From assembly GCA_002771585.1 (NCBI GenBank), contig PCTT01000044.1:1-34737 (forward strand): a stretch of 34,737 nt of DNA. The letters run 5' to 3'. Of the stretch, positions 27,694-33,624 are shown piece after piece (position 1 is the first letter of the stretch; every line of letters begins with the position of its first letter). This DNA is from Candidatus Campbellbacteria bacterium CG22_combo_CG10-13_8_21_14_all_36_13. Its GTDB lineage: Bacteria > Patescibacteriota > Minisyncoccia > Phycocordibacterales > PCTT01. The notes below the pieces were generated by a model. The model was not told the origin of the DNA, did not search any database, and saw only the letters and a program-made list of their open reading frames with translations. The translations under genes and the position numbers were made by a program.

Positions 27694-28059
27694 TTAATTT
27701 TTTAATGTTGAAACAATCTTACCAAAAATAAGGGTGAGCTCCTGACACTCTTTCCAAAGTGCTCTAGTCTCGTTTCCATTACCTGAAATAGCCGTATTCA
27801 ACATCCTGAGCCAATGCTTGGTCTCCTGGGCTTCCTTTTTACAAATATGTATCTTATTCCTAAAATCCTTCTTTGAACTCGCCCCATTAGCTTCCATATA
27901 GTTAGCTCCTATACTTGTAGCGCTTCTAATTAATTGATTGATTATTGGTTTATTGATTGAATCCTGTTTTAAACCTTTGCAAAAGATAATAACATTTTCG
28001 CCAAACTTTGCAGTTCTTTCTTCTAGATCATAATTCTTTTTGTTTTCTAATTCATTCAT
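27694..28059 (-). CDS. four-helix-bundle protein (23S rRNA intervening-sequence protein family, TIGR02436-like)
   Basis: It has SIGANYMEANGASSKKDF...KIHICKKEAQETKHWL. The first ATG is at 28059; the track start at 28074 is a TTG inside the repeat arm. Confidence 0.85.
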   Translation of the reverse strand: MNELENKKNYDLEERTAKFGENVIIFCKGLKQDSINKPIINQLIRSATSIGANYMEANGASSKKDFRNKIHICKKEAQETKHWLRMLNTAISGNGNETRALWKECQELTLIFGKIVSTLKN

Positions 28060-28180
28060 CCCGTTTAGAGGCAAGTCGTGATCATAGCAACACCCTTGAT
28101 TATTTTTTTATAAATTTTGTTTCGGCTTGTCTCCATTACATTATTTCTATTTTAATCGTGACCCCGACCTCTAACGGGAT
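28058..28180. repeat. inverted-repeat hairpin element, type A (arms 28058-28082 and 28155-28180, 72-nt loop)
   Basis: ATCCCGTTTAGAGG pairs with CCTCTAACGGGAT with one bulged T, and TCGTGAT pairs with ATCGTGA as a second helix with two G.U pairs on the plus strand. The four-helix-bundle ATG overlaps the arm end. Confidence 0.85.
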
Positions 28181-28182
28181 TC

Positions 28183-28225
28183 ATTTGAAATTGATTAAAA
28201 ATTCGAAATTCGAAATTTAAAATTC
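28183..28225 (+). repeat. AT-rich module, copy D (inverted relative to copies A-C)
   Basis: The plus-strand read ATTTGAAATTGATTAAAAATTCGAAATTCGAAATTTAAAATTC resembles the gene-sense read of copy B (ACATTTAAAATTGATTCGAAATTCAAAATTCAAAATTTAAAATT). Confidence 0.6.
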
Positions 28226-28237
28226 TGTTGATATTGC

Positions 28238-28267
28238 TTGACATTTCCCCATCTATTTTGTTATACT
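28238..28267 (+). promoter_or_regulatory. near-consensus sigma70-type promoter on the plus strand
   Basis: TTGACA lies at 28238-28243, followed by an 18-nt spacer and TATACT at 28262-28267. No plus-strand gene lies downstream. Confidence 0.35.
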
Positions 28268-28290
28268 TCTAAACATCACGAACAGAAAGA

Positions 28291-28827
28291 TCACCCTGAT
28301 GAGGTTTTGTCCTCATTGGGGCCTTTCTTTTTTTGGACCTTGTTTCTAATATCTGCGACAAACCTTGTATACGATATAAAATCTTTCCGTTTCAAGAGTC
28401 CAGAATATTTTTTGTGATTAGGTGCCATAAATGCACGCAATTTGTTGTTTTCTAAAAGAAATTCAATAAGACAATGAAAATCACCATCACCTGTCACAAT
28501 GAGTGCCCTATCAAAATCAGAAAAATGAATCATTGTATGTAAGACAAGCTCAGCATCAACATTTCCCTTTACTTTCCCATCTGGTAATTCTAGCGTTGGT
28601 TTAAATATACAAATGTATCCTGCCTCTTGAAGGTATTTATATAACCTTTCGTTTCCTTTTACATATCCAATAAAGAGAAATGCTTTTCTTATATCATATT
28701 TATCTCTGAGATAAACTCTAAACCGAACAAAATCAAGTTCCCATTTTTGATCAAGTACCCCAAGATTTAAATTCTGGCTATCTATGAATGCATAATTATT
28801 TTCCTTTTTTTCTTTATTTTTCTGCAT
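28291..28827 (-). CDS. NYN-domain protein (LabA/DUF88-like, PIN-like RNase fold)
   Basis: It has NYAFIDSQNLNLG, GNVDAELVLH and LIVTGDGDFHCLIEFL. The stop is TGA. Confidence 0.8.
   Translation of the reverse strand: MQKNKEKKENNYAFIDSQNLNLGVLDQKWELDFVRFRVYLRDKYDIRKAFLFIGYVKGNERLYKYLQEAGYICIFKPTLELPDGKVKGNVDAELVLHTMIHFSDFDRALIVTGDGDFHCLIEFLLENNKLRAFMAPNHKKYSGLLKRKDFISYTRFVADIRNKVQKKKGPNEDKTSSG
28294..28334 (+). terminator. hairpin plus U-tract, terminator-like on the plus strand
   Basis: CCCTGATGAGG (28294-28304) and CCTCATTGGGG (28311-28321) form an 11-bp stem with two G.U pairs on the plus strand only. CCTTTCTTTTTTT follows. The element lies inside the last codons of the NYN ORF. Confidence 0.35.
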
Positions 28828-28872
28828 TTGTATTTAATTGAATCTTTGTGTTCTAATAAAAATTTTATAAAC

Positions 28873-28956
28873 AAAAGGGGACAAGGGTTTACGGTACATT
28901 TACGGACTTCCTCAGTACCAACCTTTATCGGGGAGTCCTCCCCCTCACCCCCTTTT
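28873..28956 (-). ncRNA. candidate structured RNA element (long helix enclosing a 54-nt GC-rich interior), 5' of the NYN gene
   Basis: On the minus strand AAAAGGGGGUGAGGG pairs with CCCUUGUCCCCUUUU over 15 bp including 3 G.U pairs; those three become A.C mismatches on the plus strand. Inner complementarities are GGACU/AGUCC and GGUAC/GUACC. A U-rich tract follows the helix. Confidence 0.35.
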
Positions 28957-31974: not shown

Positions 31975-32037
31975 AAATAATTTTAAATTTTGAATTTTGA
32001 ATTTCGAATCAATTTTAAATGTAATAATTTAAAATTC
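31975..32037 (-). repeat. AT-rich upstream module, copy B (abuts the start of epimerase 31003..31974)
   Basis: The gene-sense read is AATTATTACATTTAAAATTGATTCGAAATTCAAAATTCAAAATTTAAAATTATTT followed by ATG. Confidence 0.75.
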
Positions 32038-32053
32038 GGTCATTATGTCATTC

Positions 32054-32086
32054 ATTCGAAATTCATAATTCATAATTCATAATTCG
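32054..32086. repeat. heptamer tandem array (ATTCATA units)
   Basis: The array reads ATTCGAA ATTCATA ATTCATA ATTCATA ATTCGCT and lies directly 3' of the GT4 stop. Confidence 0.85.
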
Positions 32087-33244
32087 CTATTTAATTAGCG
32101 TGTTAAACATCTTCTGTGACAGAGGACCCCAATCATATTTTTCTAATACGAGTGTCCTGGCGTTTTTTTGAATTAAAGCACTGAGAGTGTCATCGTCTAG
32201 TATTTCACCTATTGCACGTGCTATGTCTTTGGGGTCTTTTTTATTACAAAATAATCCTGTTGCGCCGTCTTTCAAAAAATCAGGAATACCACCCACTGGG
32301 GTCGCCACCACCGGCACACCAGCAGCCATTGCTTCAAGGAATGATATACCTTGCCCCTCAGACAGAGATGGTCTGCAAAAAACATCTGCAATACTCAAAT
32401 AGTTTGGTATTTCTTCTTGCCCAACACCGCCAACGAAAATTATCCTTTCTCCTAACTCTAAGCTCTTAACTCTTAGCTCAAGCGCTCCGCGTTCACTTCC
32501 GTCGCCAACTATCACAAGTTTTGTGTTTTCGGGGAGATGCCTCATCGCATCAACCAAATCACCCACACCATTTTTCTCTACAAGGCGTGATGTTGTGATC
32601 ACCACCTTATCATCCTCGACTATTCCCAATTTGCCACGAAGCTCGTGGTCTTTTCCTTTGTTGAAACGCGCGCTATCAACTCCGTTTGGTATAAGGGTTG
32701 TTGGTGCATTATTTGTATTTCTTTGTCCACGCAATATTAGATAGTTGCTTATTGCTGTTATGTGATCAGCCGAATTAAAAACCTTCATATATAAAGGACG
32801 TATTAAAAGCTTGTACAAAAACTCATTTCCAAAGACATATCTCTTTAAGTGGCTTTCCTCATCTCCTTCCTGAAGCGTAAGTACGAGACGAATCTCTGGG
32901 TTGGCTTTTTTAAATCGCGCGGCAGCAATGCTGGCTTGAGATGCCATCATGCACCAGATTGCGTCATAGTGGCGCGAACTCTGCAGAGTTCGCGCCTTCC
33001 CAAACCCTGTAAAAGGAATCATCCATTTATCAAAAAAACTACCAAATCCCACTCTATAAACATTCACATTACCAATCCTCTCAAATGCCTTATTTCTTAT
33101 AGAATACCTTGGCACCACCATATCAAACTCGGCCTTATCGGCACCAATTCTGTCTGTAATCTCTTTTATTGCCACCTCAGCCCCACCTATATAAGGAAAA
33201 TAGTTTGTTGAAAATATAAGTATTTTTTTATTCACTGCGCTCAT
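32087..33244 (-). CDS. glycosyltransferase family 4
   Basis: It has KKILIFSTNYFPYIGGAEV, GDGSERGALE and SEGQGISFLEAMAAGVPVVATPVGG. Confidence 0.9.
   Translation of the reverse strand: MSAVNKKILIFSTNYFPYIGGAEVAIKEITDRIGADKAEFDMVVPRYSIRNKAFERIGNVNVYRVGFGSFFDKWMIPFTGFGKARTLQSSRHYDAIWCMMASQASIAAARFKKANPEIRLVLTLQEGDEESHLKRYVFGNEFLYKLLIRPLYMKVFNSADHITAISNYLILRGQRNTNNAPTTLIPNGVDSARFNKGKDHELRGKLGIVEDDKVVITTSRLVEKNGVGDLVDAMRHLPENTKLVIVGDGSERGALELRVKSLELGERIIFVGGVGQEEIPNYLSIADVFCRPSLSEGQGISFLEAMAAGVPVVATPVGGIPDFLKDGATGLFCNKKDPKDIARAIGEILDDDTLSALIQKNARTLVLEKYDWGPLSQKMFNTLIK
32453..32480. repeat. heptamer-periodic tract inside the GT4 CDS
   Basis: The tract reads TAACTCT AAGCTCT TAACTCT TAGCTCA and encodes part of LELRVKSLELGE. 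It sits at the position homologous to 26801-26835 in the paralogue. Confidence 0.65.
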
Positions 33245-33306
33245 AAAAATAATTTTGAATTTAAAGTTTTGAATTTCGAATCAATTTTGAATGTAATAAT
33301 TTTCAA
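33245..33306 (-). repeat. AT-rich upstream module, copy C (abuts the start of GT4 32087..33244)
   Basis: The gene-sense read is TTGAAAATTATTACATTCAAAATTGATTCGAAATTCAAAACTTTAAATTCAAAATTATTTTT followed by ATG. Confidence 0.75.
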
Positions 33307-33398
33307 ACGTCGTTTTAAGATTTAGATATTTGTTCGCCGGCTGGCGAATTTGATATTGTTTAGGATTTCGTGCTTAGTGCTTTAAATAAATTATGATC

Positions 33399-33473
33399 TC
33401 ACCATTTCACTGGGCAAGCCCCGCCTATATAAGGAAAGTAGTTTGTTGAAAATATAAGTATTTTTTTGCTCAT
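33399..33473 (-). pseudogene. stranded 5' fragment of a GT4 gene (24 codons then TGA)
   Basis: It reads MSKKILIFSTNYFPYIGGA then CPVKW and a stop. Positions 33417-33467 match 33179-33229 at 49/51, and both differences are synonymous. The ATG is the end of the type B repeat arm. Confidence 0.8.
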
Positions 33474-33588
33474 CCCGTTAGAGATAGGACGCGGACTGAA
33501 TTAGCCTATATCCTATCTTGATTAAGTTGCTTATAAATTCGACCAATTATTTAATAATACTAATTCGTGTCCGCTATCTCTAACGGGA
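33472..33588. repeat. inverted-repeat hairpin element, type B (arms 33472-33496 and 33569-33588, 72-nt loop)
   Basis: TCCCGTTAGAGATAG pairs with CTATCTCTAACGGGA over 15 bp, and CGGAC pairs with GTCCG over 5 bp across a 4-nt bulge. Confidence 0.85.
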
Positions 33589-33624
33589 CTCATAACACTG
33601 TGTATTATACACTATTGACTTTAT

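Follow-up and report, generated by a model that had tools for sequence, protein, structure and literature searches.

Hairpin-ended elements with coding and non-coding forms docked on start codons in Patescibacteria

A 34,737-nt contig of Candidatus Campbellbacteria bacterium CG22_combo_CG10-13_8_21_14_all_36_13 (PCTT01000044.1 of assembly GCA_002771585.1, analysed over its full length and referred to here as the window) carries, in a region of glycosyltransferase genes, a 10-nt core, CCCGTTAGAG, in eight copies that form four inverted pairs, one of which encloses a gene for a GIY-YIG nuclease. A first-pass annotation, made from the sequence, had drawn attention to these arms without being able to place them in a described family. 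What kind of element do the arms belong to, and what is a nuclease gene doing between two of them? We consider it probable that they are the ends of a family of compact selfish elements, with coding and non-coding forms, that dock on host start codons and are mobilised by the nuclease. The family is very common in Patescibacteria, the candidate phyla radiation (CPR), and is apparently undescribed: Rfam gave no match in the window at the gathering score or at E <= 1 and none overlapping the elements in eight other loci, and full-text literature searches found no description of it.

Scanning both strands of the window for the core with at most one mismatch recovered seven copies (28169-, 30206+, 30303-, 30318+, 30586-, 33474+ and 33578-), that at 30586- being the one with a G-to-A change; an eighth, with an inserted T, lies at 28060-28070. 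Shuffled windows held 0.59 copies on average and three at most, with none of 100 shuffles reaching seven, and the scan of the whole window found no copy outside 28059-33588. The number of copies, their confinement to this part of the window, their strict pairing and the two arm flavours reported in the first-pass annotation therefore all stand. The arms are 13-bp terminal inverted repeats, TCCCGTTAGAGNY...RNCTCTAACGGGA, and reading from terminal T to terminal A sets exact ends for four elements, E1 to E4, all of which bear these repeats and fold as a long hairpin on either strand. The elements and their immediate flanks are as follows.

28059..28179, minus strand: E1, short, without an open reading frame (ORF), 121 nt (arm copies and hairpin fold)
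28180..28184, minus strand: upstream ATGAA flank copy of E1, the original start codon (by the flank rule of the family, below)
30205..30313, minus strand: E2, short, without an ORF, 109 nt (arm copies and hairpin fold)
30305..30583, minus strand: GIY-YIG ORF of 92 codons with an in-frame TGA at 30521-30523 (Pfam PF01541 and near-identical contigs)
30317..30596, minus strand: E3, full length, 280 nt, consisting of 5' arm TCCCGTTAAAG, GIY-YIG ORF and 3' arm CTCTAACGGGA
30597..30614, minus strand: TGATAAAAT (an extended -10-like box), TAGATA and an ATG touching the E3 5' arm (consensus match only)
33473..33588, minus strand: E4, short, without an ORF, 116 nt, with ATGAG at both flanks (arm copies and hairpin fold)
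33589..33593, minus strand: upstream ATGAG flank copy of E4, 10 nt past a TGTATAAT box

On the sense (minus) strand E1, E2 and E4 each finish …CTCTAACGGG-A, and that final A starts an ATG. For E1, whose gene-proximal (3') arm has one extra base and which has ATGAA at both flanks, this is the ATG of a PF05635 gene; for E2 it is that of a GT4 glycosyltransferase gene (30205-30203), and for E4 it belongs to a truncated 5'-end copy of the other GT4 gene. E3 lies directly upstream of E2 on the minus strand, and its length and layout agree with those of at least 120 metagenome elements of 274-281 nt. The ATG at its 5' arm is likely to be the original, leaderless start of the glycosyltransferase gene, judging from the box in front of it. 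The elements had been described as lying in intergenic gaps and as long stems carrying small ORFs. The first description needs amending, since three of them share their last base with an ATG on the transcribed strand and the fourth abuts E2; the second holds for E3 but not for E1, E2 and E4.

How far this arrangement extends beyond the window was examined in two collections. One genome per bacterial and archaeal species, scanned with the pattern TCCCGTTAGAG-N70-100-CTCTAACGGGA, yielded at least 119 loci with forms of approximately 120 nt, where by our estimate about one would be expected by chance. Among the matches listed, the named records are nearly all Patescibacteria/CPR (Saccharibacteria and many Parcubacteria lineages). 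A metagenome collection scanned for the same ends 240-270 nt apart yielded at least 120 loci with forms of approximately 277-280 nt. No match in either size class was found among 2.9 million viral contigs. The core is thus no chance word but part of a repeated, paired element family at many loci. The short-form counts below rest on 128 elements in the at least 119 listed loci, and the long-form counts on the 120 listed loci.

Approximately 80% of the elements stand on an ATG-initiated host ORF, with a 4-nt direct repeat at the flanks that is mostly TGAA. Among the short elements, 105 of 128 adjoin, in one orientation, an ORF of 60 or more codons whose ATG begins with the element's last A. The flank repeat is perfect in 78 of these 105 copies (TGAA in 52, TGGA in 13 and TGAG in 8), and the upstream flank copy is preceded by A in 74 cases, by G in 3 and by T in 1, which makes it a start codon (ATG, GTG or TTG). 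Downstream, the reading is ATG in every case, since the A comes from the element. In order, the layout is host NTG-NN, TCCCG...CGGG-A, TGNN and what remains of the host gene. Related copies in a single genome (loci L035, L073 and L029) have differing flanks, so the flank repeat derives from the target. TGAA makes up 67-81% of element flanks compared with approximately 20% of crudely called gene starts. A further 11 copies with variant arms lie in the flanks of the listed elements, for example TTAGAAG/CTTCTAA and TCCCGATAGTG/CACTATCGGGA, both compensatory; 10 of these 11 adjoin ATG ORFs, so the perfect arms demanded by our searches did not create the association with start codons.

The host genes are unrelated to one another and include essential ones (RF, L17, S20, GyrA, DnaN, RuvC, SSB and TopA, all Pfam-confirmed). 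At many elements a TGnTAnAAT box lies 6-9 nt upstream of the first ATG, suggesting that many of the target genes are leaderless. An ortholog of the window GT4 gene, 51% identical, has an empty ATGAAG start 9 nt past TGATATAAT, as expected for mobile DNA. The first-pass annotation had taken a lack of arm conservation at orthologous loci as grounds to reject its claim; that test presumes a regulatory site and is unsuited to a mobile element. Tandem arrays of two or three elements joined by CGGGA-TGAA-TCCCG were also seen (L003 5898-6279, L027 5472-5711, L114 and L037), and these include a variant family ending TCCCGTAG…CTACGGGA.

Short forms are 95-122 nt long and non-coding, and near-identical copies occur at different genes. 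Their terminal stem, stem 1, has 13 bp, of which positions 1-11 are invariant through our choice of search pattern. The remaining two covary: position 12 is A-T in 77 copies, G-C in 16, T-A in 7 and C-G in 2, and position 13 is T-A in 63 and C-G in 38. All told, the 11 fixed and two covarying positions pair in 102-106 of 106 copies. A second, 7-bp helix, stem 2, lies on the gene-proximal side (AC-G[6 bp]-loop-[6 bp]C-T, after which comes the 3' strand of stem 1). Of 106 oriented short copies, 46 form it locally, against about three expected by chance on our estimate, and in approximately 26 more the partner strand lies 3 nt after stem 1; a second short architecture has an insert inside stem 2. 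Covariation in stem 2 was assessed with RNAalifold and by pair counting on a subset picked for pairing, which makes the percentage paired circular but does not affect the variety of stem sequences. There were 85 cells with changes on both sides, compared with 22±3.5 in shuffled sets (none of 500 reached the observed value) and 3-17 in slid controls. Although the ends are symmetric, the copies are oriented with respect to the gene: a local stem of at least seven pairs lies by the gene-proximal arm in 56 copies and by the distal arm in 13, and interior motifs are strand-specific (AGTCG 22 versus 0, ACGG 60 versus 19, CGGGA 19 versus 3). The earlier impression that stems are selected or propagated is thus borne out by arm positions 12-13 and by the second helix, whereas the view that loops are unrelated holds within the window and fails for the family as a whole, which has strand-specific motifs and the second covarying helix in common.

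Stable, covarying stems with a biased orientation at a transcribed 5' position could also mean that the hairpins are mainly host cis-regulatory or processing RNAs in 5' leaders, cut by RNase III like rRNA intervening sequences (IVS) and spread by recruitment. The nearest published work, which describes non-intron insertions in the rRNA genes of CPR bacteria that carry GIY-YIG and PF05635 ORFs (PMC11270868), can be read in favour of this. We nevertheless consider it highly improbable, because the genes behind the elements are unrelated in function, flank duplications and tandem arrays occur, near-identical copies stand at different genes, the start site of the ortholog is empty and the parent form codes for a protein. 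Rfam offers no match, and the mismatches show no sense-strand bias (G:T versus A:C, 13 versus 8 and 6 versus 10), a result that leaves RNA folding and DNA folding indistinguishable. A riboswitch or leader of a single regulon was rejected on the same ground of unrelated downstream genes. As to the IVS likeness raised in the first-pass annotation, the shape agrees (complementary terminal arms, a long stem, an optional small ORF), but the elements are not in rRNA, none of which was found in the window; they stand at mRNA start codons with flank duplications, whereas IVS are situated in rRNA helices and excised by RNase III. The IVS-family gene directly behind one hairpin is real (PF05635 behind E1, E = 3.5e-16), but it is just the host gene hit by E1: the 119 other listed loci contain one PF05635-like match, and a weak one.

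A promoter built into the 3' arm (TTnACG-16/17-TATCTC-7-ATG) is unlikely, as the bases that would serve as -11 and -10 alternate between A/G and T/C together with their partners in the opposite arm, and a promoter scan of the window did not rise above shuffled background. Nor did the gene-less copies show coupling through an upstream short ORF: in most of them the frame opened by the first ATG soon meets a stop, and element length has no clear modulo-3 preference.

The long form shows how a nuclease gene can be built into such ends. Lengths in the listed loci cluster at 274-281 nt, and 80 of 120 carry an intact GIY-YIG ORF of approximately 85-88 codons that begins 15-22 nt after the element's first base and runs through the 3' arm, read as …K-R-F-L-S-L-T-G (CGC TTC CTA TCT CTA ACG GGA). 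In 77 of the 80 the stop is the very next codon, a TGA (or TAA) made with the flank, and the nuclease stop thus shares bases with the host ATG (GGG-ATGA). ATGAA is the flank in 65/80, and a host ORF of at least 60 codons is next in 65/80. TGGA flanks, 17% of short-form repeats, occur in only 2/80 long forms, which fits the need of coding copies for a TGA stop. At the other end, the nuclease frame is that of the upstream host ATG in 52/80 (p = 8e-9 versus one third) and is open from that ATG in 31/80, giving proteins that begin MNPVRD/E/A…; six of these 31 lack a nearby internal ATG, so that the only evident start is the host-derived one. Gene callers pick up these frames, as seen in database proteins starting MNPVRD and in nuclease-host fusions. 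One metagenome subgroup (L126, L146, L147 and L157) has long elements ending …KNRLGASYL, in which the 3' arm is read in the other frame and the stop is the TAA in CTC-TAA-CGG instead of the flank TGA.

Stem 2 recurs in the long form as a long-range helix of 10 bp that joins the DLRKR(F) codons to the (K)KRFL codons. All 10 pairs form in 60 of the 80 intact copies, and 9/10 form in a further 19; in shuffled controls the peak is at 6-7. The changes are compensatory and mostly third-codon (A-T 50/G-C 28; C-G 59/T-A 16; T-A 66/C-G 13), so that both helices of the family are kept by compensatory change even within coding sequence. This makes the coding-region helix a clean natural example of selection on protein and nucleic-acid structure together.

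The encoded protein matches Pfam GIY-YIG (PF01541, 7.7e-20). A profile of 26 members searched against PDB sequences returned the UPF0213 entries 1ZG2 (1.4e-10) and 1YWL (2.2e-5) and the SLX1 entries 7CQ2 and 7WME (approximately 3e-3), and catalytic-type residues are invariant (Y5, Y15, G17, R25, H29, E61 and others). On these matches UPF0213 (YhbQ, BH0048, EF2693) and Slx1 are the closest solved relatives, and the nuclease belongs in the UPF0213/Slx1 branch. A role in cellular repair or housekeeping is ascribed to those proteins, which are not described as parts of mobile cassettes; the activity of the protein studied here is predicted. Cleavage by Slx1 is directed at branched and stem-loop DNA, and such an activity would suit an element with hairpin ends. 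The window fragment matches approximately 2,245 clusters (50% identity) at E <= 1e-3 and 149 at E <= 1e-10. None of the other GIY-YIG genes in the fetched genome loci is flanked by these arms. One of them (L003 2100-2560) has a tRNA 5' fragment directly repeated on its two sides and neighbours a tRNA-like gene whose anticodon reads, by eye, GTT (Asn); this is a second style of GIY-YIG insertion in CPR.

In the window the GIY-YIG ORF passes through the 3' arm (…KRFLSLTG) and, as the spacer between E3 and E2 is CTA instead of TGAA, finishes at a TAG within the E2 5' arm. Its in-frame TGA takes the place of Gly in the YIG motif. An uninterrupted 92-aa ORF is present in near-identical contigs (L121-L124), and in L121 the codon is GGA, one of two differences from the window across 6.8 kb; the window nuclease is therefore a fresh pseudogene, knocked out very recently. 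Reading TGA as glycine (code 25) was rejected for the same reason.

Short and long forms detectably resemble each other only over their first 13-29 and last 23-27 nt. Given the common ends and the second helix, the short form can be described as a long form minus the stem-2 loop of approximately 160 nt. That subtraction yields the short-form length, and the orientation to the host gene is the same in both; it might accordingly be supposed that short hairpins are immobile, in-place remnants of full-length copies that lost the loop by slippage. This is very unlikely in our view. Locus L086 has a same-genome pair of short copies at different genes that are 91% identical, share loop and junction and differ by a compensatory stem change, and L111 has a second same-genome pair at 93%. 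The 5' interiors are also unlike the N-terminal coding region, and the second short architecture, with its insert in stem 2, is a further point against. We keep to the reading that short forms are gene-less relatives of a full-length parent and propagate too. The first-pass annotation had foreseen neither this relationship, with E3 as the full-length form, nor the fusion to start codons with a 4-nt flank repeat.

If the elements move, by what enzyme? Terminal inverted repeats with a short target duplication are typical of elements moved by DDE transposases, short-form interiors are unrelated to the nuclease gene, and we know of no GIY-YIG transposon family in the insertion-sequence classification. 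The elements might then be ordinary MITEs (miniature transposable elements with inverted repeats), moved by an unseen conventional (e.g. DDE) transposase that recognises the 13-bp ends, with the GIY-YIG gene as a passenger. We think this unlikely. In approximately 1.6 Mb of fetched DNA around approximately 250 elements, arm pairs have two spacings only, approximately 100-130 and 260-290 nt, and no longer element with the same ends (e.g. of 1-2 kb) was found. In 80 divergent copies the nuclease ORF is tied into both ends, starting behind or reading through the 5' arm, drawing its C-terminus from the 3' arm and taking its stop from the target, and the orientation bias of symmetric-ended, ORF-less copies would be unusual for cut-and-paste transposition.

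Under the preferred reading, in which the nuclease mobilises the family, an element would take the host promoter and start codon for its own nuclease gene and hand ribosomes back to the host gene by termination-reinitiation at the AUGA; such stop-start coupling would explain why insertions upstream of essential genes are tolerated. The folded ends (stem 1 and stem 2, as a DNA hairpin or cruciform) would be the cis-acting substrate, and the Slx1-like structure-specific nuclease would be the mobilising enzyme, serving the short forms in trans. Integration would occur via the 4-nt TGAA core in an orientation-specific manner, as suggested by the orientation bias of the symmetric-ended ORF-less copies, the excess of TGAA and the CGGGA-TGAA-TCCCG junctions of the arrays.

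Several points weigh against this reading. Mobility and cleavage by the nuclease are both things we infer from comparison of sequences. To our knowledge, no transposon uses a GIY-YIG enzyme; terminal inverted repeats with target duplication classically point to a DDE transposase, which could be acting in trans. Short-form interiors have no detectable similarity to the nuclease gene, and the model leaves unexplained how host genes are translated behind ORF-less copies. No filled and empty alleles were found among six near-identical contigs, all of which have the elements that they span. The flank rule also has exceptions. A strictly identical 4-nt repeat is present in just 43 of 80 long copies, many of the others being off by one base or offset by one base; approximately 10% of copies have ATTTA or xTAA as the upstream flank; and the E3/E2 junctions of the window depart from it, with an ATG lacking AA before E3 in addition to the atypical spacer. 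Finally, both collection scans demanded perfect arms, and their counts are lower bounds.

How the family relates to known systems can be judged feature by feature. Like the MITEs of Neisseria (Correia) and enterobacteria (ERIC/IRU), the short forms are of approximately 100-150 nt, with terminal inverted repeats, a short flank duplication and many copies; they form hairpins co-transcribed with their neighbours and are gene-less relatives of a longer element. The features that define MITEs are largely present: terminal inverted repeats, a target repeat (in the 78/105 copies above) and a small, non-coding, multi-copy form with a longer coding relative, as well as, in the window, TGAA flanks for E1, TGAG flanks for E4 and three short copies beside one long. 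A parent with a recognised transposase is missing, however, as the only ORF is the GIY-YIG nuclease. In contrast to Correia, ERIC and IRU elements, the parent here is no insertion sequence with a known transposase, and consists of a 280-nt GIY-YIG gene whose ends are themselves coding; insertion is at the start codon, where the ATG is restored by the last base, the orientation to the host gene is fixed, and the same 11-nt end is found across many candidate phyla.

Free-standing GIY-YIG homing genes (T4 Seg, with the intron-borne relative I-TevI) are likewise selfish, nuclease-only genes wedged between host genes, and the GIY-YIG domain with its conserved residues is common to both. Homing genes have one cognate site and neither inverted repeats nor a duplication. 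The elements described here, in contrast, stand before hundreds of unrelated genes, have inverted repeats and a 4-nt duplication, and give rise to non-coding derivatives that propagate; the protein, at 86 aa, is a catalytic domain with a basic tail and has no separate DNA-binding domain. Rickettsia palindromic elements (RPE) are also small, palindromic, selfish DNA at or in genes of reduced genomes and compatible with expression, but RPEs lie in frame and are translated within the host protein, whereas these elements dock at the start codon and leave the host protein unchanged. REP/REPIN-RAYT and IS200/IS605 systems were rejected, since flank duplications are present and the protein is GIY-YIG and not HUH (Y1).

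One further resemblance is to integron attC sites between gene cassettes. GTTAGAG/CTCTAAC in the arms recall the GTTRRRY/RYYYAAC core sites of integrons, as these are known to us, and a folded, imperfect palindrome with a variable centre between same-orientation genes would be expected of attC. We give this explanation hardly any credence and rejected it: attC sites run RYYYAAC … GTTRRRY and recombine at G|TT, and the order is reversed in every copy (CCCGTTAGAG … CTCTAACGGG), GTT… standing on the 5' side and …AAC on the 3'. Neither direct repeats of 4 nt nor fusion to a start codon fits, and no integrase gene is present among the neighbouring genes examined in the window.

The family thus combines a selfish GIY-YIG gene with MITE-like derivatives. 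Should the nuclease be what mobilises it, the family would rank as a transposable-element class of its own and a new one. Such a class, with a minimal Slx1-like GIY-YIG enzyme as sole protein, its own folded ends, a TGAA core, start-codon takeover and parasites of approximately 120 nt, is a proposal that we make tentatively. The elements encode no candidate for a transposition-like enzyme other than the GIY-YIG/Slx1-type nuclease, which is hence a candidate new type of transposase. The way of lodging is itself new: the element enters one base into the start codon, rebuilds the ATG, codes its protein through its inverted repeats and would borrow host initiation, leaving essential genes (gyrA, dnaN, genes for ribosomal proteins) intact in very small genomes. 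The non-intron GIY-YIG insertions in CPR rRNA genes (PMC11270868) may belong to the same family, which may explain them.

A practical consequence is misannotation across Patescibacteria, in the form of host ORFs extended into the hairpin, nuclease-host fusions and 'MNPVRD…' proteins. The window provides an example. In public calls the GT4 gene behind E2 (29075-30277, P0001) encodes 400 aa from an ATG in the E2 loop, whereas the ATG at the E2 arm gives 376 aa, in agreement with the N-terminus of orthologs; elements of this kind cause systematic errors in start sites. The genes around the elements, with the corrected start, are listed below.

27694-28059, minus strand: PF05635 'IVS protein' gene (PF05635)
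28291-28827, minus strand: NYN-domain gene
29075-30205, minus strand: GT4 glycosyltransferase
31003-31974, minus strand: epimerase
32087-33244, minus strand: GT4 glycosyltransferase
33417..33472, minus strand: dead GT4 5' fragment behind E4, 56 nt, 93% identical to 33179-33234
33760-34473, minus strand: GT2 glycosyltransferase

The live counterpart of the dead fragment, the GT4 gene at 32087-33244, starts 238 nt downstream behind an AT-rich block of its own. This block, of approximately 56 nt (…TTTTGAATTTCGAATCAATTTT…), lies upstream of three minus-strand starts (27653-27708, 31975-32030 and 33247-33302), with inverted copies at 28182-28232 and 29016-29071, and looks like a local promoter type for leaderless genes. 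The epimerase gene has TAAAAT 5 nt upstream of its ATG. Beside the PF05635 gene, the near-identical contigs L120 (8303-8995) and L121 (7516-8733) diverge right downstream of it, one having an ATE_C/FemAB-like gene and the other the GT4 gene of the window; further on, L120 has a LAGLIDADG fragment.

Three other features of the window lie outside the elements. On the plus strand, 28238-28330 holds the region's best sigma-70-like match (TTGACA-18-TATACT, with a TG upstream), behind which come a terminator-like hairpin (28294-28321) and a T-run. The stretch is antisense to the NYN-domain gene at its 3' end, could encode a small antisense RNA and matches no Rfam family. A 26-nt inverted repeat (AAAAGGGGACAAGGG / CCCTCACCCCCTTTT) spans 28862-28967, between the NYN-domain and GT4 genes. 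The stretch at 30640-30860 is GC-rich, unlike its surroundings, with GCCTGCC repeats and a hairpin at 30831-30851.

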